From a virus (lineage: Duplodnaviria > Heunggongvirae > Uroviricota > Caudoviricetes), in the IMG/VR virus record IMGVR_UViG_2657245081_000003: DNA of 18,978 nt. One strand, written 5' to 3'. The notes under the pieces were generated by a model that was given only the letters and a program-made list of their open reading frames with translations, made no database searches and was not told where the DNA came from. This document shows, in pieces, positions 357 through 18,978 of this stretch (positions are counted from its first letter, which is position 1; each line of letters starts with the position of its first letter). The position numbers were made by a program, and so were the translations under genes.

Positions 357-803
357 AATGTATTCCTGAAGCGTTCTCAGTGCTGTTTGGTCGCGGATAA
401 TTCCGTCCCGGATATCGAGAACGTTTCGTCCAGCAACTGGAGAGAGTTCGACGGTGGCATCATTGCCCATGCCGGAGGCGCTGGAGGTTTCGGCAGAGGA
501 TGGCACAGGGCATTTTCCTTTGACGAGCACCCTGCCACCATTATCAAGCTTCCGCAGAAGAGCATCATTTTCAGCTTTCGCATCAGCTAACTCCTTCGTG
601 TATTTTGCATCGAGCGCAGCAACATCACGCTGACGCATCTGCATGTCAGTAATTGCCGCGTTCGCCAGCTTCAGTTCTCTGACATTTTTGTCGCGCTGGG
701 CTTTGTAGGTAATGGCGTTATCACGGTAATGATTAACAGCCCATGACAGGCAGACGATGATGCAGATAACCAGAGCGGAGATAATCGCGGTTACTCTGTT
801 CAT
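357..803 (-). CDS. Rz: Rz i-spanin (C-terminal end lost in gap)
   Basis: Translation [40 protein letters not shown]... has an N-terminal TM anchor and a coiled-coil-rich periplasmic part, matching lambda Rz at the N-terminus and diverging after AENDAL. Its ATG (803-801) overlaps the endolysin TGA (802-800) in an ATGA arrangement. The ORF runs into the Ns at about the expected Rz length (~153 codons). Confidence 0.8.
377..583 (-). CDS. Rz1: Rz1 o-spanin lipoprotein, embedded in the +1 frame of Rz
   Basis: Translation [21 protein letters not shown]...[16 protein letters not shown] has a signal peptide with lipobox VAGC and a proline-rich mature part, nested inside Rz as in lambda and phage 21. 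Confidence 0.75.
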
Positions 804-1297
804 TGCTGACCCCACAAACAGATTTCACGCTCAATCTCACGACGAGTCATGAGACCTTTCCATTGCTTACCGCCAGCATATGTCCAGCGACGTAGCTGAT
901 CACATGCGTCTTTGATATCGCCCTTGTTTATTTTGCGAAGAAGCGTCGATGTTCTGAAATTGCCAGCACCCACGTTGTAAACGAATGAGTAAAGAGCGCC
1001 GCGCATTGTTTCCGGTATATCGACTTTGATGTACGGGTTAATTTGTCTGGCGACCGTGGCAAGGTCTTTATTCAGGAGGGCTTTGCATTCTGCTTTGGTA
1101 TACGTTTTACCGAGCATGATGTCTTTTCCTGTATGCCCGTGACATACAGTCCATACACCAACAATATCTTTGTATGGTATGTAGCTGACACCTTCCAGAC
1201 CATCGTTACCACTTGGGCCAGTAATTAACACTGATGCTATAGCAATTGCTCCGCCACCAATAGCAGCAGCAACGGCTTTTCGTAATGATGGAGGCAT
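800..1297 (-). CDS. R: SAR endolysin (phage-21 R-type lysozyme, GH24 muramidase with N-terminal signal-anchor-release domain)
   Basis: Translation [44 protein letters not shown]...[18 protein letters not shown] matches phage 21 R / DLP12 RrrD from memory. The glycine/alanine-rich weakly hydrophobic N-terminus is a typical SAR domain. Its ATG overlaps the holin stop (TAATG). Confidence 0.9.
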
Positions 1298-1512
1298 TAT
1301 TCACCTCTCGCAGCCTTGCGCTTATCTTCTTTAATCTTGAAATAAAGGTTTGTCAGGTACGTCAGCAGGCCAAATACCAGGCTACCCAGCACACCTATTG
1401 CTGCCCACTGTGAGGGCGTGACTTTATCGAGCAGCTGTAAAAACCAGTAACCGGCACTACCTGCTGAGGTGCCATAGGCGACACCCGTTGTTAACTTATC
1501 CATGGATTTCAT
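1297..1512 (-). CDS. S: Pinholin (S21-type class II holin) with dual-start motif
   Basis: Translation [71 protein letters not shown] has two TM segments and a charged C-terminus. The two in-frame starts Met1-Lys-Ser-Met4 are the S21-71/S21-68 antiholin/holin arrangement. SD GAGGTGG lies immediately upstream. The longer track ORF begins at a TTG. Confidence 0.85.
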
Positions 1513-2099
1513 AACCCCACCTCGCAGACAAAGCGGGTGTAAATTGAGGGAATACAACGTATCGCAAAAAAGCAGAAACGTAACAGACTCGGAGTCAGTG
1601 AATAACTCAGGTATTGGGTTATCAGCTAATATCGAGACTCAAAAAATGGAAAAATCCGCTCGACGGCGGGTTTAAGCTGTGTGACGAAGTAACCACTCTT
1701 AACAGCATAACCAATTTTTTACGTACGTAAACCACTAAATGATATTTGCGAGAATGCTACCGAGTATTGAAAACACCACTACAAATACATAAGCAAATCT
1801 CAACAAATAACCAACAAATAATTTCCAGCGTTATTTTTAGCTGGTTTAAATTGAATCTTCAAATTATAGAGCACTTATAAATAACAGCCATTAATATAAA
1901 TTGGCTAATAGATTTATTTTTATTCAGCCAAGAGCCATGAATAGGATTCGATAGAAAAAGTTCAGATAAAAATAGAGATCTACTTCACAAATCAAATGAG
2001 AAACCAAAACTTACATCTTGAAATAATCACATTGATTAGATGAATATTTATCGCGCAGTGACATCATTTTTTAATAATAGTTCAAAAAAAGGGCTCACG

Positions 2100-3182
2100 A
2101 TGAAAAAATTAACAGTGGCAATTTCTGCTGTAGCTGCATCAGTACTGATGGCGATGTCTGCTCAGGCAGCTGAAATTTATAATAAAGACAGTAACAAGCT
2201 GGATCTGTACGGGAAAGTTAATGCTAAGCACTACTTCTCCTCTAATGATGCAGATGATGGTGATACTACTTATGCCCGTCTTGGCTTCAAAGGTGAAACC
2301 CAAATCAACGATCAACTGACTGGTTTCGGTCAGTGGGAATATGAATTCAAAGGCAACCGCGCTGAATCTCAAGGTTCCTCCAAAGATAAAACCCGTCTTG
2401 CCTTCGCTGGCCTGAAATTCGGTGACTACGGCTCCATCGATTATGGCCGTAACTACGGTGTAGCATACGATATTGGTGCATGGACCGACGTTCTGCCAGA
2501 ATTCGGTGGCGATACCTGGACCCAAACAGATGTATTCATGACTGGTCGCACCACAGGTGTTGCAACTTATCGTAACAATGACTTCTTTGGTCTGGTTGAT
2601 GGTCTGAACTTTGCTGCTCAGTATCAGGGTAAAAATGACCGCACTGACGTAACTGAAGCTAATGGTGATGGTTTCGGTTTCTCCACTACTTATGAGTATG
2701 AAGGATTCGGTGTAGGTGCAACCTATGCTAAATCTGACCGCACTAATAATCAGGTTATCTACGGTAACAACAGCCTGAATGCATCTGGTCAAAATGCTGA
2801 AGTATGGGCAGCTGGTCTGAAATATGATGCGAACAACATCTATCTGGCTACCACCTATTCTGAAACCCAGAACATGACTGTTTTTGGTAATAACCATATT
2901 GCCAACAAAGCACAAAACTTCGAAGTAGTTGCACAATATCAGTTCGACTTCGGTCTGCGTCCGTCCGTTGCTTACCTGCAATCTAAAGGAAAAGACTTGG
3001 GTGCGTGGGGTGATCAGGACTTGGTTGAATATATTGATGTAGGTGCAACCTATTACTTCAACAAAAATATGTCCACTTTTGTTGATTACAAAATCAACCT
3101 GATTGATAAGAGCGATTTCACGAAAGCATCTGGCGTTGCTACCGATGATATCGTTGCTGTAGGTATGGTTTACCAGTTCTAA
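2100..3182 (+). CDS. nmpC: Outer-membrane general porin, phage-encoded Lc/NmpC type (OmpC/OmpF/PhoE family)
   Basis: Translation [47 protein letters not shown]... ...VGMVYQF has a signal peptide ending AQA, a porin-family body and a C-terminal aromatic residue (F) typical of beta-barrel OMPs. It sits between Q and S on the opposite strand, as nmpC does in DLP12. Start chosen at ATG 2100 (AGGG SD) rather than the track's 2040. Confidence 0.9.
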
Positions 3183-3197
3183 TTTGATTACTAAAAG

Positions 3198-3231
3198 ATA
3201 TGTTGCGGGAGGCTTTGCCTCCCCAACATAT
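3198..3231. terminator. Long imperfect hairpin (15-bp stem, one bulge, 3-nt loop) downstream of porin gene; on the - strand it is followed by CUUUU and is a candidate tR'-like terminator of a short Q-side transcript
   Basis: ATATGTTGCGGGAGGC-TTT-GCCTCCCCAACATAT read directly; the reverse complement of the right arm equals the left arm minus one C. Confidence 0.45.
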
Positions 3232-3318
3232 AAGTGGCTCCCTCAAGCCACTTCCTTTAGGAGCACAACCTTGCTTCTAACTATATAAACCTTCTGTTAT
3301 ATATTACCCTTTATTTTT

Positions 3319-3343
3319 GGGGGCGTCTCAACGCCCCATTTTT
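3319..3343 (+). terminator. Rho-independent terminator (GGGGCG-tctcaa-CGCCCC followed by ATTTTT) for + strand transcription (porin gene)
   Basis: Perfect 6-bp GC-rich stem plus T-tract read directly; lies between the convergent porin and Q genes. Confidence 0.55.
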
Positions 3344-3370
3344 AATAACTTTTAGTAAATAATTGGCGTA

Positions 3371-3754
3371 TTAATTAGAGTTATTAACAACGATATCCAT
3401 CTCTAACCGGATATCTAATGCCATTAACATCCCTTCAATTATGCCCTCAGCCTTCTGTAACCTTTTCCCGATATAACCATCAGAGCAGCAATGCTTACCT
3501 GCCAGTGACATGAATGTCATACCGACTACATAATAATCTACTAATAAATCGTGCAAATCGCTGTTGTTCTTTTTCAGACGGGCCATGCACCCGCAAATGA
3601 TCATCGCGTCATCGTCACAACATTGCGGGCGAGATTTTACTTTTGAAGTAATTAATCCCTTAAAACCGGCGGCAATGGACGACCAGGTCACATCTTCATG
3701 ATTATTAGCCGCCCACGCTCCCCAACGCTCAAGAACCATCTGAATATCACGCAT
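3371..3754 (-). CDS. Q: Late-gene antiterminator Q (phage 21/82 - DLP12 QuuD type)
   Basis: Translation [64 protein letters not shown]... matches DLP12 QuuD from memory, with cysteine-rich zinc-binding motifs. The ATG at 3754 is preferred over the upstream TTG at 3769. Confidence 0.85.
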
Positions 3755-3839
3755 CAACTTACTCCACAAAAATCAGACCAGAACGCCAATTACAAGCAAA
3801 AATCAACAAAACAGTATTAGTTGATTGTTATCTCTGACT

Positions 3840-3962
3840 TCATACTCCTGCTCCTGTCAGGGTTTTGGCGTAATTCTTCAGTATTCGGTAATCGGTCAAA
3901 ACAGAACCGGGGAAACGATATAAGCGCAGACGCCCCCAGCGGTGGCGAAGACGTTCTGCCAT
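3840..3962 (-). CDS. Small basic protein, YlcG-like (40 aa), between rusA and Q
   Basis: Hand translation MAERLRHRWGRLRLYRFPGSVLTDYRILKNYAKTLTGAGV. The position corresponds to ylcG of DLP12. No clear SD; below the track's length cutoff. Confidence 0.35.
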   Translation of the reverse strand: MAERLRHRWGRLRLYRFPGSVLTDYRILKNYAKTLTGAGV

Positions 3963-3976
3963 ATAAAACTCAAACA

Positions 3977-4339
3977 TCATTCATTCCCCATTTCGGTGAT
4001 GGTCAGTTCCAGCCTCCCACCTTTGGTAACAGGCATCTTCACAACGCGGTAATCAACGACCTGAGCATCATCCAGCCAGAAACCTGCTTTAGTGAGTGCG
4101 TCAAAAGCGGCTTTTTGCAGATTATCCAGGTCACGGCGACGGCGATCCGGCATGTGGCACTCAATGCGGATTTTCACAGGCATAGCCAGGCCGATATCCA
4201 GCATTGCGTTTTTAATGATTCGGGCGACGTTATCGCGGTATGCCTGCCCCTCTGCGCTGACGTGCGTGCGCCCGCGATTATGGCGGTAATAGCGATTATT
4301 GCTCGGAGGCCAGGGTAATGTGATGCTGTAGGTATTCAC
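3977..4339 (-). CDS. rusA: Holliday-junction resolvase RusA
   Basis: Translation [120 protein letters not shown] matches DLP12 RusA from memory. GTG start. Confidence 0.9.
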
Positions 4340-4626
4340 GCCTTAATAACCCCCTCTTTCAGCCAGATAACCTGTGTTCTCGCCATACCTTCCAGCGCGC
4401 ATTCTTTTGCATATGCAGCATCGACAAAATGTGTGCGGCGGTCGATTTCGTCGTGGCAGGCAGAACATGCAATGGTGGCAATCAGGTCTGGCGGTTTGGT
4501 ACCGGTGCCGCACAATCCAGTCAGCCGGATATGTGCCAGTACAGACGTTTCAGGGTTGCCATTACATACGCCAGGGATTCTTACCTGGCATTCCCGACTA
4601 CGCGCTGCTTTTCTCAAATCAGCCAT
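4336..4626 (-). CDS. ybcO: YbcO-family protein (DUF1364, putative nuclease; cysteine-cluster)
   Basis: Translation [64 protein letters not shown]... matches DLP12 YbcO from memory. The ATG at 4626 overlaps the ninE stop. Confidence 0.8.
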
Positions 4627-4789
4627 GATTCCTCCTTGCTGCCAGTCGCAACCATTTTTTATCAACCAGGCTGGCGGTATATCCGAGCAGTGTTGGTATT
4701 TCGGAAGGCTTCAGCTCCGGTTTACGCTTACGACGATCTGGTACTCTGTAGATGTGTCCGTTCATGACACGAATAAGCGGTGTAGCCAT
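4619..4789 (-). CDS. ninE: NinE-family small protein (56 aa)
   Basis: Hand translation [56 protein letters not shown]. Its start overlaps the ybcN stop (TAATG) and its stop overlaps the ybcO start. Not in the ORF track because it is under 60 aa. Confidence 0.75.
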   Translation of the reverse strand: MATPLIRVMNGHIYRVPDRRKRKPELKPSEIPTLLGYTASLVDKKWLRLAARRNHG

Positions 4790-5244
4790 TACGCCTCCTG
4801 CTTGTCGCGGAGCAGCTGGAACTCGCAGCTCTGCGGAATAGTCAGGTGGCAGCCAATATTCACCGCCCAGGCTTCAACCTTACACAGGAAGACATACATC
4901 TCTCCGGTATCAAGATCGGAGGTATGGCGTAACGACTGGATAGTGGTGATATCACCGGTTACGACATCAACCAGGTCTTTGGTTTCATAACCGAGATATG
5001 TGTGTTTGAGAGCATCTTTTACCCAAGCTGGAGTGGCGAACGTTTTACCCTTGCTGATGAGGTATTCACTGATTTCGCTGTACCACATGTGGCTGAGTGC
5101 ATTCTGGGAAAGACTGCGTCTCTCGCGCCACGGTTTAAGCACCATGCGAAAGCATTTGCCGTCCTCCAGATAAGGCTGGATCTGCCGACCGATAGCGGTG
5201 AAGTTACCGCGATGCAATTTGATACCATCTTGTGGGAGGTTCAC
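4789..5244 (-). CDS. ybcN: NinB/YbcN-family protein (recombination-associated, DNA-binding)
   Basis: Translation [62 protein letters not shown]... matches DLP12 YbcN from memory; the RSLSQN..LW motif is shared with lambda NinB. Confidence 0.8.
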
Positions 5245-5409
5245 GCTTCACCTCCGCAGAGGTCAAACGTTGGATGCAAGATATCGCAGGTGCATTTCTG
5301 CATCTGTGACTGGTTGAAAGGTGTTCTGATTGTCGTTTGCACTTTGAGTCCCCTCAAAGCGCAGAAGTCACCGGAGTTGTTCAGGCTCCGATGACATGAT
5401 TATGGCGAG

Positions 5410-5427
5410 TTGATTATGATGAATCAA
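5410..5427. promoter_or_regulatory. Perfect 18-bp palindrome TTGATT-atgatg-AATCAA about 95 bp upstream of the 472-aa gene; candidate operator/promoter element (TTGATT could double as a -35)
   Basis: Read directly; the 6-bp arms are exact reverse complements. No binding protein is known. Confidence 0.3.
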
Positions 5428-5519
5428 TAGGTTCTTATGTCAAATGAACACTAGATCCAAAGGAGGGTAACAATTATCATAGCCAATGAGATTAATCTCA
5501 TTTTTAATAAGGAAATTTC

Positions 5520-6938
5520 ATGAAATATTTCTCAACTGGTTTTTATGTTTCAAACTCCACATCTCTAGCTGAGATCTTTAATGAATGTTTTTCTTGGGTA
5601 AACGACTCACCACATACAACTTTTATTCCAGCACAATTAGTATGTGATTATAAAAGCGAGGAGTACTTCATAGAGTCTAAAAATGAAAGAATTGATATAA
5701 TAACTTATAAAAACAAAGATACTAGTTTAGGCTGTTTTAGGTATTCGAAAATATCTGAGCCACACAAATGGGTAACAGATATTTCAATTAATAAAAATCT
5801 CAAAACTGATACCATGTGGATTCAGGTGGAATCTAGCGTTGTAAGCCAAGATGCAGCTTATCTAGCCCCGCAACCTAAGAAACCATTAGTTGTTATGAGA
5901 TTGATTGATAAATTTTCTGGTGGTCTTGATGATATTTTCAAGGTGTCAGTCGAACCTCATTCCTTAGATGATACTGATGAACATTTAAATATAGCAGCTA
6001 AAGTTATAAATGGTGAAACTGACAACAGACTACCAATAATATACGTTAGCTCCAAGTATTTTTTTAATGAACATGCTCACAATATCATCCCAGAACGCCT
6101 TGCAAGAAAGGTATGCGGATTAGCACATGTATTAATTGAGCCTAGCAATAGACTATTTTCTATTAAGCTAAAAAATGAGACAAATGCTAAAAATGCCTAT
6201 GCTGGTGCTGTTGGTATCTATTGGCCACGGGGTCAAAATATCAGTTTTTATCGCCGTGGTGAGAAAACCGCAAAAGAATTTGAAGATGAGTTATTTGATG
6301 ATGTTGTAAGAGCTACGACTACAATGGCTCCTGTCTCAGATAGTGGATGGAGTGAGATACAAACCAGAAAAACGAAAGACTCTATTAACTCACTCAAAGA
6401 AAGAGGAGAATACACACGCGAACTGATGGCGCTTTACGAAGCCGATAATGTTGCGAAAGATGACCAAATAGAAGATCTTAAGCATAAGATCTCCTCTTTA
6501 GAGCACAGAGTACGCACTCTTCAATCACAAGCTTCAGCCCAAGGAAGCATTGTGCTTAATGCTGGTGAAGAGACTGATTTTTTTGATGGAGAAATCAAAA
6601 ATATAATTATTGACGCACTAAAAACTGCCATAAAAAATAAAAATGAATTTGGTAGAAGCTACCATATCTTATCATCCCTAATTGCCAATAATGAATACAA
6701 TAAAGAAACCGAGAGTCGCCGCCAATTACTTAAAAGGACTTTAACAGGTTACAGAAGCATGGATAGCGCAACACAAAGAAATTTAAAGGACTTAGGTTTC
6801 AGTGCGTCAAGCGATGGAAAACACTGGAAGTTAACATATAATGAAGACCCTCGATATTCCTATATTTTACCTAAAACAGGAAGTGACCACAGAGGTTCTT
6901 TAAATGCTATCTCGGATATAGCAAACATTATTTTCTAA
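5520..6938 (+). CDS. Hypothetical protein, 472 aa, no recognisable family; AT-rich accessory gene (moron), candidate phage-defence or exclusion function
   Basis: Long uninterrupted ORF with SD AAGGA 7 nt upstream of the ATG and strongly AT-biased codons unlike the neighbours. It is on the strand opposite to the surrounding operon and is followed by a perfect hairpin. A predicted coiled-coil segment is present (ELMALYEADNVAKDDQIEDLKHKISSLEHRVRTLQSQ). No Walker A or other motif recognised by eye. Confidence 0.75.
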   Translation: MKYFSTGFYVSNSTSLAEIFNECFSWVNDSPHTTFIPAQLVCDYKSEEYFIESKNERIDIITYKNKDTSLGCFRYSKISEPHKWVTDISINKNLKTDTMWIQVESSVVSQDAAYLAPQPKKPLVVMRLIDKFSGGLDDIFKVSVEPHSLDDTDEHLNIAAKVINGETDNRLPIIYVSSKYFFNEHAHNIIPERLARKVCGLAHVLIEPSNRLFSIKLKNETNAKNAYAGAVGIYWPRGQNISFYRRGEKTAKEFEDELFDDVVRATTTMAPVSDSGWSEIQTRKTKDSINSLKERGEYTRELMALYEADNVAKDDQIEDLKHKISSLEHRVRTLQSQASAQGSIVLNAGEETDFFDGEIKNIIIDALKTAIKNKNEFGRSYHILSSLIANNEYNKETESRRQLLKRTLTGYRSMDSATQRNLKDLGFSASSDGKHWKLTYNEDPRYSYILPKTGSDHRGSLNAISDIANIIF

Positions 6939-8294: not shown

Positions 8295-9220
8295 AAATCC
8301 ACCCCGTAAATCCAGTCAGTGTTTGTCAGGTCGAGTTTTGATTTTCCGGCTATCACGCCAGCCTGTTGCTTGTTACGGTTGATTTCGAGTTGGGTCCACT
8401 TGTCGCGGAGTTTGGCCGGACTTAGCACGTTACCGGACCAGAAGTTGTCCTGGCATGCCCAGCGGAACAGCACGCACATGTCGCGGTGGTTACGGCCGTC
8501 ACGTTCACGCATCAGGCGGATATCGTTAGCCCACCCTGCAAAATTCGGTTTTCTGGCTGATGGCGCGATGGTCTTCACCATGTCAAACATCCACTCTGCG
8601 GCGGTCAGGTCTTCTGCTGTCCCCCACCTGCTGCCGCTCTGAATTGCAGCATCTGGTTTCTCCACAGGAAGATCGTTTTCTGGTTGGTCAGAGGATTCGC
8701 CAGAATTCTCGGACGAAAAAGGTTTTATATTGTCTTTTGTTAGTTTGTATTTTGTGTTTACCTGATTCGGGTAAGTGCCTTTACCTGATTTGGGTAAACT
8801 TTTCTTACCTGATTCAGGTAAATTTACCTCTTTCAGGTAAACTTTATTTTTCTTACCTGATTCGGGTAATGTTGACCATTCACTGACCACATTATTAATG
8901 CCGATATTCCGCCCGCTCTGAATAAAAATCCCACGCTTTACCAGAACACTTTTTGCAGCAGAACACTTGTGCGGCAATATCCCGGTCAACTCGGAAAGTT
9001 GCTCGTTGCTCACCCAATCCAGTTTTTTATTAAAGCCATATGTTTTGCGCATGACAGCCAGGAAGACCAGAAGCTGGTGCTGTGTTAATCCGGCCAGCAT
9101 CACAGCTTCCAGCAACTCATTTGCAATGCGCGTATAACCATCATCGAGATCTGCCACGCGCGGCTCCTTTTGTGCCGCATCCGGCACTGGAAAATTGAAT
9201 ATCTCAGCAGTGTTTGCCAT
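8291..9220 (-). CDS. O: Replication initiator O (origin-binding protein); the gene contains the origin iterons
   Basis: Start chosen at MANTAEIFNFPVPD... (ATG 9220, SD GGGAGG upstream) rather than the longer track ORF. The C-terminal half ...AAEWMFDMVKTIAPSARKPNFAGWANDIRLMRERDGRNHRDMCVLFRWACQDNFWSGNVLSPAKLRDKWTQLEINRNKQQ... is lambda-O-like from memory. The repeated LPESGKK peptide is encoded by the iterons. Confidence 0.9.
   Translation of the reverse strand: MANTAEIFNFPVPDAAQKEPRVADLDDGYTRIANELLEAVMLAGLTQHQLLVFLAVMRKTYGFNKKLDWVSNEQLSELTGILPHKCSAAKSVLVKRGIFIQSGRNIGINNVVSEWSTLPESGKKNKVYLKEVNLPESGKKSLPKSGKGTYPNQVNTKYKLTKDNIKPFSSENSGESSDQPENDLPVEKPDAAIQSGSRWGTAEDLTAAEWMFDMVKTIAPSARKPNFAGWANDIRLMRERDGRNHRDMCVLFRWACQDNFWSGNVLSPAKLRDKWTQLEINRNKQQAGVIAGKSKLDLTNTDWIYGVDL
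8748..8859. repeat. Origin of replication iterons: five ~17-bp dyad-symmetric repeats (consensus TTACCTGATTCGGGTAA) inside the O gene, flanked by an AT-rich tract (8700-8747)
   Basis: Copies start at 8748, 8771, 8795, 8814 and 8843 (TTACCTGATTCGGGTAA, TTACCTGATTTGGGTAA, TTACCTGATTCAGGTAA, TTACCTCTTTCAGGTAA, TTACCTGATTCGGGTAA). Relative to O transcription the AT-rich region is downstream of the iterons, as in ori-lambda. Confidence 0.8.
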
Positions 9221-10146: not shown

Positions 10147-10250
10147 AACAACCTCCGTGGTTAATCCGAATAAAGATTAAAACTATGGTTGTTTTTAGTC
10201 AACAACCATTTTCGTTTGATGAAATAAAACCTTGGTTGTACATTTGATCT
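10147..10250. promoter_or_regulatory. Immunity control region (OR): divergent pR/pRM candidates and operator palindromes
   Basis: Palindrome ATGGTTGTT-N7-AACAACCAT at 10185-10209, with further GGTTGT/ACAACC half-sites at 10147-10160 and 10233-10240. Candidate pR on the - strand: -35 TTGACT (10197-10202), 17-bp spacer, -10 TAATCT (10174-10179). Candidate pRM on the + strand: -35 TTGATG (10216-10221), -10 TACATT (10239-10244), which would give a leaderless cI mRNA starting at the ATG, as for lambda pRM. Confidence 0.55.
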
Positions 10251-10940
10251 ATGAAAACAACACTCTCAGAAAGACTTAAAGAAGCCAGATTAGCGCGAGG
10301 CCTTACACAAAAGGCGCTTGGGGATTTGGTCGGGGTTAGCCAGGCTGCTATTCAGAAAATCGAAACAGGGAAAGCTAACCAAACAACTAAAATCGTGGAG
10401 ATCGCGAACGCTTTGGGTGTGCGCGCAGAATGGTTATCTTCTGGCGTTGGAAATATGTCAGACAGTACAGTGCAACCAATACAATCAACTGTCAGCCATT
10501 CCAAATACTTCAAAATTGACGTTCTTGATATAGAAGTCAGTGCCGGGCCAGGTGTAATCAACCGTGAGTTTGTAGAAGTTCTACGCTCGGTTGAGTACTC
10601 GTTTGACGATGCTCGTCACATGTTCGATGGCAGGAAGGCGGAAAATATCCGCATCATTAACGTGCGAGGTGACAGCATGTCAGGGACGATCGAACCAGGT
10701 GACCTGCTGTTCGTTGATATCACTGTTAAATCTTTCGACGGTGATGGCATCTATGCGTTTCTGTACGACGACACTGCCCATGTAAAACGTCTTCAAATGA
10801 TGAAGGATAAGCTGCTGGTTATCTCTGATAACAAGAGCTACTCGCCGTGGGACCCGATCGAGAAAGACGAGATGAACCGGGTGTTCATATTCGGTAAGGT
10901 CATTGGAAGCATGCCGCAGACGTACAGGAAGCATGGTTAA
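10251..10940 (+). CDS. cI: CI prophage repressor (N-terminal HTH, C-terminal LexA-like S24 autopeptidase domain)
   Basis: Translation MKTTLSERLKEARLARGLTQKALGDLVGVSQAAIQKIETGKANQ... has an HTH, then a linker, then the S24 motifs RGDSMSGTIEPGDLLFVD and HVKRL (Ser/Lys dyad). Confidence 0.9.
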   Translation: MKTTLSERLKEARLARGLTQKALGDLVGVSQAAIQKIETGKANQTTKIVEIANALGVRAEWLSSGVGNMSDSTVQPIQSTVSHSKYFKIDVLDIEVSAGPGVINREFVEVLRSVEYSFDDARHMFDGRKAENIRIINVRGDSMSGTIEPGDLLFVDITVKSFDGDGIYAFLYDDTAHVKRLQMMKDKLLVISDNKSYSPWDPIEKDEMNRVFIFGKVIGSMPQTYRKHG

Positions 10941-11148
10941 TTTATCTACGACTTAAGGGAGCGAAGGTTAAGGTTTATACCACTCGGATTAGATATTGCA
11001 CTAAATTCTCTATAAGAACGCCAAATCTGTTTGCATATTTCAGTAAATATTCTCGTTGTTAGCTGAGATTTGTTGCTACTGTCAGCAAAATGTCCCCCTA
11101 TCTCGTAGCGGTTTTTATTTCGAATCATTATGTTAAGATGTTTCTGAT

Positions 11149-11154
11149 TATAAT
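11149..11154 (+). promoter_or_regulatory. Perfect -10 hexamer TATAAT 16 bp upstream of the lipoprotein ATG (candidate independent promoter; -35 weak)
   Basis: Read directly. No good -35 at 17 bp, so activity is uncertain; the gene could instead be co-transcribed with cI. Confidence 0.3.
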
Positions 11155-11169
11155 GAATGGAAACATAAA

Positions 11170-11550
11170 ATGAGAAAAATCCTAATCGCTGCCATGATGG
11201 CATCTGTATTGGCTGGGTGTGCTTCTTCAGGCAACCAGCAACTCAAAAATGAAACTGAAATTAGTGTCCAGTCTAAACTTCAGGAAGGTAAAACAACCAA
11301 GAATGAGGTTAAATCTTACTTTGGTTCTCCTGATGCTGTTTCATATACTGACAGTGGAAACGAGATCTGGAAGTACGCCTTTGCAAAAGTAAAAGTTAAT
11401 GGCACCACTTTTATTCCATTCTATGGATTATTCCATAATGGAACGAACGGTACGAAAAAAGAACTTACTATTCTTTTTAACGATGACACGATTAAGAAAT
11501 ACACAATGTCAGAAACCCAAATAAACTCGAAATCAGGTTGGGCTGACTGA
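11170..11550 (+). CDS. Lipoprotein (126 aa), AT-rich moron at the rexAB position downstream of cI; possible BamE/SmpA-OmlA-like fold; candidate superinfection-exclusion factor
   Basis: Translation MRKILIAAMMASVLAGCASSGNQQ... has a signal peptide with lipobox LAGC; the mature part is hydrophilic. Followed directly by a rho-independent terminator. Confidence 0.75.
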   Translation: MRKILIAAMMASVLAGCASSGNQQLKNETEISVQSKLQEGKTTKNEVKSYFGSPDAVSYTDSGNEIWKYAFAKVKVNGTTFIPFYGLFHNGTNGTKKELTILFNDDTIKKYTMSETQINSKSGWAD

Positions 11551-11557
11551 TAATCAT

Positions 11558-11584
11558 ACCCGGCAACCGCGCCGGGTTTTCTTT
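11558..11584 (+). terminator. Rho-independent terminator (CCCGGC-aaccgc-GCCGGG + TTTTCTTTTCC)
   Basis: Read directly, 8 nt after the lipoprotein stop. Confidence 0.75.
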
Positions 11585-11710
11585 TCCTCCCCCTCATAAC
11601 TCATACCGTCCAAAAAACCACCACACCTCACTTCAGTTATCGCTATGCGATGCAAGTCACAAAATAAATCCATCCTAAATACAACCAGTTATATTTAAAA
11701 CAACCGACAA

Positions 11711-11753
11711 AACAACTTTTGTTGTTGACGATAAAACAACTATAGTTTTAAAT
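11711..11753 (+). promoter_or_regulatory. Candidate pL/OL: palindrome AACAAC-tttt-GTTGTT overlapping -35 TTGACG (11724-11729), 17-bp spacer, -10 TTAAAT (11748-11753)
   Basis: Read directly; it shares the AACAAC/GTTGTT half-site with the OR region, as expected for CI operators. Confidence 0.45.
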
Positions 11754-11860
11754 TAAATTCATCGCAACGACACAACGATACGGTAACCACCTGTTTCACC
11801 GTTGCGATGACCGCTTAGATCCGCAGTTTGAATTTCAGCAGGCTTCGGGGAGTGCGAGGG

Positions 11861-12238
11861 GTGAAACGGACGCGTGAACGTCGGTGTGACCAGCTGAAAT
11901 CAACACAACACTTTATACCTCAGTCGCTTCAACGAGGCGGCTTAGTTATGACAACCGGCGGCCATCCACCGCCTGAATACGCGCAGAAGTCTCTATATGT
12001 TCAGCAGCCCAGCTTACGGGCAGGAGTTTTTATGGTTCATCAACATTACGGAACGCAGACCGTTAATCGCGGTGCGGTCATGCCAGGAATGCTGGTCAAA
12101 CACAAAGATGGTACCTGGACTGCATCAGCTAATTTACGCGGACGGCTTTATCTGCATCGCGGCATCGAGCGCACTTATACCCGTGATTTGCTCGTAGAAG
12201 TTTTTCTCGACGGACGCGGTAACGGCCTGAATCACTAA
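11861..12238 (+). CDS. N-position early protein, putative N-like antiterminator (GTG start; alternative ATG start at 11948 gives 96 aa)
   Basis: First gene downstream of candidate pL. From GTG 11861 (SD GGGGAG 9 nt upstream) the N-terminus is [13 protein letters not shown], an arginine-rich stretch resembling the N-protein ARM (lambda TRRRERR). The rest is not recognisably N-like. Confidence 0.4.
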
Positions 12239-12313
12239 TCCCCTTTCCTGTTTTCCTAATCAGCCTGGCATTTCGCGGGCGATATTTTCACAGCCATTTT
12301 CAGGAGTTCAGCC

Positions 12314-16293: not shown

Positions 16294-16512
16294 ATGTACT
16301 TGACACTTCAGGAGTGGAACGCTCGCCAGCGACGCCCAAGAAGCCTTGAAACAGTTCGTCGATGGGTGCGCGAATGCAGGATATTCCCTCCTCCGGTTAA
16401 GGATGGAAGAGAATATCTGTTCCACGAATCAGCGGTAAAGGTTGACTTAAATCGACCAGTAACAGGTAGCCTTTTGAAGAGGATCAGAAATGGGAAGAAG
16501 GCGAAGTCATGA
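16294..16512 (+). CDS. xis: Excisionase Xis (lambda-type)
   Basis: Translation MYLTLQEWNARQRRPRSLETVRRWVRECRIFPPPVKDGREYLFHESAVKVDLNRPVTGSLLKRIRNGKKAKS is near-identical to lambda Xis from memory; overlaps the int start by 23 nt as in lambda. Confidence 0.95.
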   Translation: MYLTLQEWNARQRRPRSLETVRRWVRECRIFPPPVKDGREYLFHESAVKVDLNRPVTGSLLKRIRNGKKAKS

Positions 16513-17560
16513 GCGCCGGGATTTACCCCCTAACCTTTATATAAGAAACAATGGATATTACTGCTACAGGGACCCAAGGACGGGTAAAGAGTTTGGATTA
16601 GGCCGAGACAGGCGAATCGCAATCACTGAAGCTATACAGGCCAACATTGAGTTATTTTCAGGACACAAACACAAGCCTCTGACAGCGAGAATCAACAGTG
16701 ATAATTCCGTTACGTTACATTCATGGCTTGATCGCTACGAAAAAATCCTGGCCAGCAGAGGAATCAAGCAGAAGACACTCATAAATTACATGAGCAAAAT
16801 TAAAGCAATAAGGAGGGGTCTGCCTGATGCTCCACTTGAAGACATCACCACAAAAGAAATTGCGGCAATGCTCAATGGATACATAGACGAGGGCAAGGCG
16901 GCGTCAGCCAAGTTAATCAGATCAACACTGAGCGATGCATTCCGAGAGGCAATAGCTGAAGGCCATATAACAACAAACCCTGTCGCTGCCACTCGCGCAG
17001 CAAAATCAGAGGTAAGGAGATCAAGACTTACGGCTGACGAATACCTGAAAATTTATCAAGCAGCAGAATCATCACCATGTTGGCTCAGACTTGCAATGGA
17101 ACTGGCTGTTGTTACCGGGCAACGAGTTGGTGATTTATGCGAAATGAAGTGGTCTGATATCGTAGATGGATATCTTTATGTCGAGCAAAGCAAAACAGGC
17201 GTAAAAATTGCCATCCCAACAACATTGCATGTTGATGCTCTCGGGATATCAATGAAGGAAACACTTGATAAATGCAAAGAGATTCTTGGCGGAGAAACCA
17301 TAATTGCATCTACTCGTCGCGAACCGCTTTCATCCGGCACAGTATCAAGGTATTTTATGCGCGCACGAAAAGCATCAGGTCTTTCCTTCGAAGGGGATCC
17401 GCCTACCTTTCACGAGTTGCGCAGTTTGTCTGCAAGACTCTATGAGAAGCAGATAAGCGATAAGTTTGCTCAACATCTTCTCGGGCATAAGTCGGACACC
17501 ATGGCATCACAGTATCGTGATGACAGAGGCAGGGAGTGGGACAAAATTGAAATCAAATAA
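16490..17560 (+). CDS. int: Integrase Int (lambda-type tyrosine recombinase), intact
   Basis: The 356-aa translation MGRRRSHERRDLPPNLYIRNNGYYCYRDPRTGKEFGLGRDRRIAITEAIQANIELFSGHKHKPL... ...HLLGHKSDTMASQYRDDRGREWDKIEIK is essentially lambda Int. Confidence 0.97.
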   Translation: MGRRRSHERRDLPPNLYIRNNGYYCYRDPRTGKEFGLGRDRRIAITEAIQANIELFSGHKHKPLTARINSDNSVTLHSWLDRYEKILASRGIKQKTLINYMSKIKAIRRGLPDAPLEDITTKEIAAMLNGYIDEGKAASAKLIRSTLSDAFREAIAEGHITTNPVAATRAAKSEVRRSRLTADEYLKIYQAAESSPCWLRLAMELAVVTGQRVGDLCEMKWSDIVDGYLYVEQSKTGVKIAIPTTLHVDALGISMKETLDKCKEILGGETIIASTRREPLSSGTVSRYFMRARKASGLSFEGDPPTFHELRSLSARLYEKQISDKFAQHLLGHKSDTMASQYRDDRGREWDKIEIK

Positions 17561-17694: not shown

Positions 17695-18978
17695 GTGAAC
17701 ACATTTTCAGTTTCCCGTCTGGCGCTGGCATTGGCTTTTGGCGTGACGCTGACCGCCTGTAGCTCAACCCCGCCCGATCAACGTCCTTCTGATCAAACCG
17801 CGCCTGGTACCTCTTCTCGCCCGATTCTGTCGGCAAAAGAAGCGCAGAATTTCGATGCTCAACACTATTTTGCATCCCTGACACCAGGTGCTGCAGCGTG
17901 GAATCCTTCCCCGATTACCCTGCCTGCGCAACCTGACTTTGTTGTCGGCCCGGCGGGCACTCAAGGTGTAACGCATACCACGATTCAGGCGGCGGTAGAT
18001 GCGGCAATTATCAAGCGTACCAACAAGCGCCAGTATATTGCCGTGATGCCTGGTGAGTATCAGGGAACGGTATATGTCCCTGCCGCTCCGGGTGGAATTA
18101 CTCTGTACGGTACAGGTGAAAAACCGATTGATGTGAAGATTGGGCTTTCCCTTGATGGTGGCATGAGCCCTGCCGACTGGCGTCACGACGTCAACCCGCG
18201 CGGCAAATATATGCCAGGTAAACCAGCGTGGTATATGTACGATAGCTGCCAGAGCAAACGCAGCGACAGTATCGGTGTTCTCTGCTCTGCGGTCTTCTGG
18301 TCACAAAACAATGGCCTGCAACTGCAAAATCTGACCATCGAAAACACGCTGGGCGATAGCGTAGATGCAGGTAACCATCCGGCGGTGGCACTGCGTACTG
18401 ATGGTGACCAGGTACAGATTAACAACGTTAACATTCTCGGTCGTCAGAACACCTTCTTTGTCACCAACAGCGGTGTGCAGAACCGTCTGGAAACGAATCG
18501 TCAGCCGCGTACGCTGGTGACCAACAGCTACATTGAAGGGGATGTGGATATCGTTTCTGGTCGCGGCGCAGTGGTGTTCGATAACACCGAATTCCGCGTG
18601 GTGAACTCACGTACTCAGCAAGAAGCGTATGTGTTTGCACCGGCTACGCTGTCCAACATTTACTACGGTTTCCTCGCCGTAAACAGCCGTTTCAATGCTT
18701 TCGGTGATGGTGTGGCGCAACTGGGCCGCTCGCTGGATGTTGATGCCAATACCAACGGTCAGGTGGTGATCCGTGATAGCGCCATCAACGAAGGTTTTAA
18801 CACGGCTAAACCGTGGGCCGATGCGGTGATCTCTAATCGTCCGTTTGCGGGTAATACCGGCAGCGTAGATGATAACGACGAAATACAGCGCAATCTGAAT
18901 GACACTAACTACAACCGCATGTGGGAATACAATAACCGCGGCGTGGGTAGTAAAGTGGTTGCAGAGGCGAAGAAGTAA
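17695..18978 (+). CDS. ybhC: Host lipoprotein YbhC (pectinesterase-family acyl-CoA thioesterase), flanking lambda attB
   Basis: GTG start; translation MNTFSVSRLALALAFGVTLTACSSTPPDQ... has a lipobox LTAC; 427 aa; GC-rich host-like codon usage; recognised from memory as E. coli YbhC, the gene next to attB-lambda. Confidence 0.93.
   Translation: MNTFSVSRLALALAFGVTLTACSSTPPDQRPSDQTAPGTSSRPILSAKEAQNFDAQHYFASLTPGAAAWNPSPITLPAQPDFVVGPAGTQGVTHTTIQAAVDAAIIKRTNKRQYIAVMPGEYQGTVYVPAAPGGITLYGTGEKPIDVKIGLSLDGGMSPADWRHDVNPRGKYMPGKPAWYMYDSCQSKRSDSIGVLCSAVFWSQNNGLQLQNLTIENTLGDSVDAGNHPAVALRTDGDQVQINNVNILGRQNTFFVTNSGVQNRLETNRQPRTLVTNSYIEGDVDIVSGRGAVVFDNTEFRVVNSRTQQEAYVFAPATLSNIYYGFLAVNSRFNAFGDGVAQLGRSLDVDANTNGQVVIRDSAINEGFNTAKPWADAVISNRPFAGNTGSVDDNDEIQRNLNDTNYNRMWEYNNRGVGSKVVAEAKK

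Follow-up and report, generated by a model that had tools for sequence, protein, structure and literature searches.

A lipoprotein gene with a predicted BamE/BLIP-type fold in the rexAB position of a lambda-like prophage: a candidate for superinfection exclusion

The susceptibility of a bacterial strain to other phages, and perhaps to toxins, depends on the prophage genes that are expressed in its lysogens, which is relevant to phage therapy and to competition between mobile elements. The region between cI and N of lambdoid phages is a known hotspot that is expressed in lysogeny and holds rexAB in lambda and BstA in BTP1; RexAB and BstA act inside the cell, as systems of the abortive-infection or toxin-antitoxin type (PMC8585504). 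Here we analyse a gene for a 126-residue lipoprotein that follows cI in a lambda-like prophage, carried on an 18,978-nt stretch of viral DNA (IMG/VR record IMGVR_UViG_2657245081_000003; hereafter the window, at its full length). Similarly to RexAB, BstA and the GevTA/PDC-M11 pair, it is encoded in the cI-N slot on the cI strand and is presumably expressed in lysogeny. In contrast to these systems, which act inside the cell, its product is a single exported protein.

The position adjacent to the tape-measure gene is the site of HK97 gene 15, a superinfection-exclusion moron (PMC3594210). Its product gp15, the first moron to be named, belongs to the YebO family, is small and resides in the inner membrane, and has chromosomal homologues outside prophages. 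The lipoprotein gene likewise has such homologues, and 18 of 80 viral loci have it just ahead of the tape-measure gene, where a gene in the chaperone position precedes it in the two loci that were read; its product, however, is a predicted outer-membrane lipoprotein of the BamE fold. Cor (phages phi80, N15, HK022 and mEp167) and T5 Llp are also phage-made lipoproteins that could act at the outer membrane. The cor and llp genes adjoin the receptor-binding tail genes that they match, whereas the gene described here is located beside cI (54/80) or the tape-measure gene (18/80) and crosses unrelated tail types. Ltp of the Streptococcus phage TP-J34 is a prophage lipoprotein that blocks DNA injection by targeting the incoming tape-measure protein, a possible parallel for the lipoprotein copies beside tape-measure genes, although Ltp has a different fold and a Gram-positive host. 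Lambda Bor, finally, is a small prophage lipoprotein, accessory cargo that plays no part in the growth of its lambdoid phage (PMC3594210). In contrast to the present gene, bor is located in the late region by the lysis genes, and Bor belongs to another family and fold, its reported role being serum resistance.

The lipoprotein belongs to a catalogued (PHROG 3135, SEN1984 family) but uncharacterised family, and its kind, the prophage lipoprotein moron, is a familiar one. Three aspects of the present analysis are modestly new: the placement of the family in the BamE/BLIP fold superfamily rather than with BamE itself, its alternation between two classic moron sites (after cI and before the tape-measure gene), and the anatomy of the locus, with a terminator that belongs to the phage backbone and a putative portable extended −10 element.

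The cassette and its lipoprotein

The orientation of the prophage in the window is reversed relative to the customary lambda map, with replication genes, cII and cro on the minus strand and the cI-type repressor gene followed, further downstream, by gam, bet and exo on the plus strand. Positions 10200-12300 are 99.8% identical to Escherichia phage PhiR26_1 (PV340555.1), which was propagated on E. coli K-12. The lipoprotein open reading frame (ORF) is on the same strand as cI and starts 229 nt past the cI stop codon. Two mirrored operator regions, OR (10168-10217) and OL (11705-11760), bracket cI and the lipoprotein gene in the same manner as OR and OL of lambda enclose cI-rexA-rexB, and a motif scan of the OL/pL region revealed a promoter-like TTGACG-18-TAAATT at 11725-11754. 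The lipoprotein gene occupies the lambda rexAB position.

Conserved flanking sequence stops at 10936 and restarts at 11559 in blastn comparisons with phages PhiR34_1, Turner, PhiR47_2 and 4A7, thus delimiting a cassette of 622 bp (10937-11558). Flank identity is ~95–96% in PhiR34_1, Turner and PhiR47_2 and ~92% in 4A7 over the same breakpoints. The cassette is replaced by 125 bp of unrelated filler in PhiR34_1 and Turner, by a 1.5-kb two-gene module annotated GevT/GevA in PhiR47_2 and by a 1.5-kb module encoding a hypothetical protein and an ASCH-domain protein in 4A7. GC content is 0.335–0.40 inside the cassette versus 0.46–0.54 in the flanks (200-nt windows). DNA missing from otherwise close phages, deviant base composition, a terminator after the gene and a promoter that works in the repressed prophage are the features by which morons are defined (PMC3594210); the first three are observed here, and an extended −10 described below is a candidate for the fourth. 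The cassette is horizontally acquired extra DNA, a lysogenic-conversion gene (moron) inserted between cI and the immunity-operon terminator. A preliminary description of positions 10941-11584 had proposed an AT-rich lipoprotein moron at the rexAB position on the cI strand; the GC contrast, the blastn breakpoints and the operator bracketing bear this out, and the limits of the cassette nearly match that interval.

No second gene is present in the cassette, which holds the single exported lipoprotein gene and differs in this respect from a RexAB-type module of a cytoplasmic sensor and an inner-membrane effector. A scan of the spacer between cI and the conserved leader detected no stable terminator, and the fold of 11060-11122 gave a z-score of −0.6. 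At ≥99% identity the cassette was found in 69 of 5426 complete E. coli genomes (1.3%), where all copies are chromosomal and a repressor-type gene is adjacent in 25 of the 25 listed. In E. coli NZ_CP100994.1 (hit H49) an IS1 insertion splits the cassette match into two pieces, which may represent a natural knockout or a polar disruption.

The lipoprotein starts with MRKILIAAMMASVLAGC, where MRK precedes a hydrophobic core and residues 1-16 constitute the signal peptide. Leu-14, Ala-15, Gly-16 and Cys-17 form the lipobox; Cys-17 (codon 11218-11220) is followed by Ala and then Ser and is invariant in 67 of 67 relatives. The 126-residue length and LAGC lipobox given in the preliminary description therefore stand for ORF 11170-11550. 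In E. coli, lipoproteins that have no Asp at position +2, next to the lipidated cysteine, are sorted to the outer membrane. The lipobox here fits the pattern [LVI][ASTVI][GAS]C and is followed by Ala at +2, and the protein is predicted to be exported by Sec, lipidated at Cys-17 and sorted to the outer membrane by Lol.

Comparison with the homologues of Salmonella, Citrobacter and Enterobacter prophages yielded a ratio of non-synonymous to synonymous substitution (dN/dS) of 0.03–0.07, with saturated synonymous sites (pS 0.67–0.80) and a non-synonymous divergence of 0.05–0.14. This divergence is mostly in the signal peptide, the mature domain being far better conserved, and the ORF is intact at every locus whose sequence was read. 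The gene is real and the lipoprotein is under strong purifying selection.

In profile searches residues 1-124 match phrog_3135 (E 2.9e-48), for which no function is assigned. The Pfam BamE model (PF04355) scores 21.8 bits against a cut-off of 23.2, thus below threshold, and the same model is matched by 58 of the 67 relatives (E ≤0.01). NCBIfam, in a release without a SEN1984 model, produced only signal-peptide-level matches. RefSeq labels are mostly 'outer membrane protein assembly factor BamE', while one genome (H56, 100% DNA match) carries the label 'SEN1984 family lipoprotein'. SEN1984 itself, from the excisable island ROD21 of Salmonella Enteritidis, is an uncharacterised lipoprotein described as BamE-like by Phyre2 only (PMC10655114, PMC3198454).

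An AlphaFold2 model computed from the alignment of the 67 relatives (mean pLDDT 78.8) displays two helices followed by three long strands, and BamE chains rank first when this model is compared with the PDB by Foldseek (target TM-score ~0.62). Alignment to E. coli BamE by hhalign extends over 89 columns with a probability of 87.6% and an E-value of 3.5e-6; identity to E. coli BamE is ~22–24%. Between the first two strands the alignment reveals a conserved insertion of ~14 residues, the 'FIP' loop with its near-invariant Pro-83, which is missing from BamE. The correspondence of an N-terminal 'GN' motif to the 'QGN' of BamE, seen in pairwise BLAST, was not reproduced by hhalign. The preliminary description had called for structure prediction to decide on a BamE-like fold, and the three methods confirm, at the level of models, that the mature part is a single BamE/BLIP-type α-α-β-β-β domain. 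It had also held that homology to a housekeeping lipoprotein of known unrelated role would refute its proposal of a superinfection-exclusion or receptor-blocking function. Remote homology to BamE is indeed found, but it connects BamE to a distinct mobile subfamily, so that the proposal is not refuted. In contrast to BamE (SmpA/OmlA), a subunit of the β-barrel assembly (BAM) complex, the lipoprotein is mobile cargo of 69/5426 E. coli genomes and has an extra conserved loop. Within the BamE/BLIP fold superfamily it constitutes a subfamily of its own, distinct from the housekeeping BamE; the 'BamE' label in most genome annotations overstates what is known and is a mislabel.

Mobility and transcription of the gene

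The family numbers 1332 cluster representatives at E ≤0.001; its loci were sought with the single protein as query. Relatives at 38–55% identity reside in ordinary chromosomal contexts of diverse Proteobacteria, such as Gilliamella, Vannielia and Robiginitomaculum, and the close subfamily (≥67% identity) is mobile-element cargo. Hosts of the family include E. coli, Salmonella, Citrobacter, Enterobacter, Raoultella and Serratia; copies of 46–48% identity are found in Klebsiella phages, and a 46% identical relative is carried by ~100 Burkholderia conjugative plasmids. The family is widespread in the prophages of Enterobacteriaceae, and it is strongly conserved.

Two insertion sites predominate. 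In two homologue clusters, all ten of the places listed are lambdoid prophages with the gene on the same strand downstream of an S24/helix-turn-helix (HTH) repressor. The 80 IMG/VR viral loci comprise 54 in which the gene follows a cI-like gene, 18 in which it is located 65–1172 bp upstream of the tape-measure gene and 8 that were left unclassified. The tape-measure site was further seen in Klebsiella phage RAH1 and in Phytobacter, Raoultella and Serratia genomes, and on a 48-kb circular phage-like replicon of E. coli the gene is positioned in the tail module, just upstream of the gene for a lytic-transglycosylase-domain protein. Two tape-measure-site phages that were read closely share the order DUF6246 protein (in the chaperone position), with or without a KilA-N gene, lipoprotein and tape measure. 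At least three unrelated tape-measure/tail types accompany the gene. As judged from these loci, the gene moves between unrelated phage backbones together with a conserved leader of ~40–50 nt.

At the tail-module site a KilA-N/antirepressor-like gene is regularly found just upstream of the lipoprotein gene (L088 4052-4579, L122 3913-4668, L016 2397-2894, L039 4296-5886), and in locus L088 a second small secreted protein (5486-5812) is encoded between the lipoprotein and the tape-measure gene. The site looks like a multi-gene moron cluster. In other genera a gene of 68–80 codons without a Pfam match lies on the opposite strand directly 3′ of the lipoprotein gene (Table 1); the window is without such a gene.

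Among the 60 distinct leaders compared, the most conserved element is TG-n-TA[A/G]GAT, located 31–39 nt before the ATG and represented in the window by TGTTAAGAT. Of the 16 distinct cI-site leaders in which the gene is separate from cI, 15 have this extended −10 candidate, as do all 14 tape-measure-site leaders (29/30 non-fused); it is missing from 12 of 12 leaders in which the gene is fused 48–49 nt behind the cI stop. Extended −10 promoters need no good −35. In Salmonella phage S107 and in Citrobacter and Enterobacter prophages an intrinsic terminator is found immediately upstream of the extended −10 block, and an internal promoter would therefore be demanded in those relatives. The pattern fits a portable promoter, predicted to be kept in the late operon and lost on fusion to cI, of which the leader would be a clean example.

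The lipoprotein transcript should in addition be served by the repressor promoter. No terminator was detected between cI and the lipoprotein gene in the window, either by scan or by folding, so that read-through from the cI promoter should include the lipoprotein gene, as for rexAB. Downstream, a hairpin at 11558-11577 followed by a T-run (−14 kcal/mol, z −3.8) begins 8 nt past the stop codon. Relatives whose site is empty or filled differently have this terminator too, and it is therefore an element of the backbone and not of the cassette. A hairpin with T-run follows the stop codon in 19 of the 19 relatives listed, and a strict perfect-stem scan retrieved one in 27 of 50 distinct IMG/VR loci.

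These results modify the transcription signals assigned in the preliminary description while upholding the placement of the gene for expression in the lysogen, which is supported by its location on the cI strand, the missing intervening terminator and the conserved promoter-like element upstream. The strong terminator reported there is real, but belongs to the backbone and is present in phages without the gene. Similarly, the TATAAT noted as a possible −10 of the gene exists at 11149-11154, but the conserved element is the extended −10 TGTTAAGAT. The hexamer is confined to the E. coli allele, lacks a usable −35 on the plus strand (the scan reports the hexamer only on the minus strand) and is positioned 16 nt from the ATG, which would leave a leader of ~9 nt, too short to include a ribosome-binding site; it was rejected as a conserved promoter.

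The leader can form a GUUUCU/GGAAAC hairpin (11140-11165; −4.5 kcal/mol, z ~−1.6 in the window), and a GUUUCY/GGAAA hairpin of −4 to −9 kcal/mol is predicted in most leaders of this type, with 79% of cells pairing. Covariation in the hairpin is not above that of shuffled alignments (110–269 of 500 shuffles at least as high). The predicted hairpin would cover the ribosome-binding site, in a manner reminiscent of a fourU-type thermosensor.

In S107 (locus L017) the BstA homologue is followed by a terminator that is 88% identical to window positions 11559-11584. Terminator-like hairpins on both sides of the lipoprotein unit may serve as recombination joints for cassette exchange.

Table 1 Features of the lipoprotein locus. 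Positions refer to the window, except in the last row, where they refer to the loci named.
Feature	Position	Strand	Basis
126-aa lipoprotein gene (PHROG 3135, 'SEN1984 family')	11170..11550	+	ORF; profile, fold and selection evidence
cI-type repressor gene (HTH + S24 peptidase), upstream partner in the immunity operon	10251..10940	+	ORF; annotated cI in PhiR26_1, 'S24 family peptidase' in E. coli genomes
Variable cassette (moron)	10937..11558	+	blastn breakpoints; GC contrast; other cargo or 125-bp filler in close relatives
Spacer specific to this E. coli allele	10941..11116	+	Matches only PhiR26_1 in the phage collection; not homologous to loci of other genera
Conserved leader travelling with the gene	11117..11169	+	Nucleotide homology with Salmonella, Citrobacter and Enterobacter loci begins at 11117-11130
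Extended −10 candidate TGTTAAGAT, TG-t-TAAGAT, expected start near 11146	11131..11139	+	Leader conservation; best promoter candidate
TATAAT	11149..11154	+	Allele-specific; relatives have TTGCAAT, TTGTAAT or CGAACAAT
Weak Shine-Dalgarno GGA, 8 nt before ATG	11159..11161	+	Sequence; can pair with GUUUCU 11140-11145
Intrinsic terminator ending the cI-lipoprotein transcript, lambda tIMM analogue	11558..11585	+	7-pair stem (6 GC) + T-run
OL/pL region, closes the immunity region	11705..11760	+	19-nt direct repeats 11705-11723 and 11729-11747; inverted matches to OR 10168-10217
Small opposite-strand gene after the lipoprotein gene (other genera)	L029 6423-6665; L030 6420-6662; L006-L015 ~8410-8722; L017 4423-4650	-	

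Possible functions of the lipoprotein

The safest reading is that of a lysogen-expressed lipoprotein binding a conserved host envelope protein. In BamE and in BLIP the fold works through binding another protein, and entry titles suggest the same protein-binding use in TpgA and BtiO. The protein varies little from one phage backbone, tail type or host genus to another, and a conserved component of the host envelope is therefore a likelier target than a phage protein that evolves fast. Beyond this, we tentatively favour superinfection exclusion at the outer membrane or in the periplasm, following by analogy the logic of Cor, Llp and HK97 gp15 with an unrelated family, a role to which we would give a little less than an even chance. 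In the lysogen the gene would be transcribed through read-through from the repressor promoter and additionally from its own portable extended −10 (TGTTAAGAT, 11131-11139), the transcript ending at the backbone terminator. The BamE/BLIP-type domain would act as a protein-binding module docking on the conserved host envelope protein, and the lipoprotein could in this way bar superinfecting phages, and perhaps further agents that cross the envelope, from passing the outer membrane or periplasm.

The neighbourhood of the slot points to defence. The cI-N slot of S107 holds a BstA homologue (L017 2989-3753; PADLOC E 9e-100) directly between cI and the lipoprotein gene, and the GevT/GevA module in the corresponding slot of PhiR47_2 matches PADLOC PDC-M11A/B (E 2e-133 and 7e-52). 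Like RexAB and BstA, GevTA/PDC-M11 is an intracellular system of the abortive-infection or toxin-antitoxin type.

Several observations weigh against superinfection exclusion. The PADLOC defence models give no hit for the lipoprotein, its similarity to Cor is confined to the signal peptide (phrog_1119, E 0.066, residues 1-29) and the listed PDB fold matches include no Llp chain. The gene is unlinked to receptor-binding tail genes, unlike cor and llp. In addition, the family is found on Burkholderia conjugative plasmids and on the excisable island ROD21, and its deeper relatives are ordinary chromosomal genes; the ancestral role is therefore one other than phage defence, and what the mobile copies do in the envelope might be of any kind. 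The promoter of the gene is proposed from leader conservation, and both the sorting to the outer membrane and the side faced by the domain are predictions. No relevant study emerged from literature searches on the PhiR phages, GevT/GevA, BamE-like prophage lipoproteins and OmlA in lysogens, nor did any experiment on the family. Masking of the phage's own receptor in the manner of Cor and Llp is the form of exclusion that these data disfavour, as the missing receptor-gene linkage, the lack of similarity to Cor past the signal peptide and of an Llp chain among the listed matches, and the plasmid and island copies count against it.

Among the alternatives, an envelope lipoprotein that promotes the fitness or virulence of the lysogen, through stress tolerance, serum resistance or host interaction as for lambda Bor and Lom or perhaps the stress-induced BamE-fold lipoprotein OsmE, is unlikely, yet has an appreciable chance. 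It sits poorly with the preferential location of the gene in the cI-N defence hotspot and at the HK97-type exclusion-moron site adjacent to the tape-measure gene, and the papers retrieved report no virulence phenotype for SEN1984 itself. Rather doubtful is a periplasmic inhibitor or immunity protein, whose domain would neutralise a periplasmic enzyme or toxin (a colicin, type VI effector, peptidoglycan hydrolase or protease) and protect carriers of the element: no cognate toxin gene adjoins the lipoprotein gene at any site examined, and the fold resemblance is generic to the superfamily.

The homology to BamE raises the possibility that the lipoprotein docks on the BAM complex (BamA/BamD) instead of or beside BamE and alters outer-membrane protein assembly or the conformation of BamA, changing receptor display or blocking agents that use BamA. 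Remote true homology over 89 columns, the top rank of BamE chains in Foldseek and the match of most relatives to Pfam BamE agree with such mimicry, and a target shared by the hosts would fit the strong conservation of the protein from genus to genus. The low identity to E. coli BamE, the score below the Pfam threshold and the 14-residue insertion that BamE lacks speak against it, and we consider it improbable. A long shot is its bolder form, a viral BamE mimic that docks on BAM or another essential conserved outer-membrane machine and alters its conformation or receptor output, rendering the lysogen refractory to the phages, contact-dependent toxins or bacteriocins that depend on that machine; outer-membrane biogenesis would then be modulated by a mobile gene borne by phages and plasmids. 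That the gene is a silent passenger, a decaying or unexpressed remnant, as the unique spacer (10941-11116) and the weak ribosome-binding site might suggest, is scarcely credible given the low dN/dS at saturated synonymous sites, the intact ORF at the loci read and the conserved leader.

If superinfection exclusion is indeed the role of the lipoprotein, the few known outer-membrane exclusion lipoproteins would be joined by one of novel fold and family. Action on the BAM machine would instead constitute a new kind of host manipulation. The phenotype is easy to test because natural controls exist, namely PhiR26_1 with the gene and PhiR34_1 and Turner with flanks of ~96% identity and an empty site.

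Other features of the prophage

In the annotation of PhiR26_1 no N-like antiterminator is present between pL (~11725-11754) and the 'Kil' ORF (window ~11860-12238). An HK022-like antitermination RNA downstream of pL (the GC-rich 11756-11905) was considered and rejected, as the segment folds no better than shuffled sequences (z −1.0) and has no Rfam match. Rfam scans of the whole window, and of 10800-12300 at a relaxed threshold, gave nothing meaningful.

The window and PhiR26_1 are not collinear. The PhiR26_1 tape-measure gene H is represented in the window by its 5′ start (bases 1-346, 98%), which is followed, after ~210 bp, by the lysis-Q-nin region inverted relative to PhiR26_1 (559-5417, 94.8%), with no head or tail genes between. 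Either the prophage is rearranged or defective, or the arrangement stems from a join made in assembly. PhiR26_1 has PD-lambda-1 as cargo between ren and the nin region; at this site the window carries a 472-aa ORF (5520-6935, plus strand), a possible defence gene that lacks a Pfam domain and weakly matches HEC-07, a PADLOC candidate (E 1e-9).

A lambda-type integrase gene (16490-17557, plus strand) precedes a pectinesterase-like gene (17695-18978, plus strand), which resembles the ybhC gene beside the lambda attachment site. This likeness suggests integration at attB-lambda. The integration module is unlike that of PhiR26_1.

A full-length general porin gene (2040-3179, plus strand; Pfam Porin_1, E 4e-153) is located inside the stretch matching the Q-to-lysis region of PhiR26_1 and is a further envelope moron of this phage lineage. 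PhiR26_1 additionally encodes Bor, Lom and an omptin.

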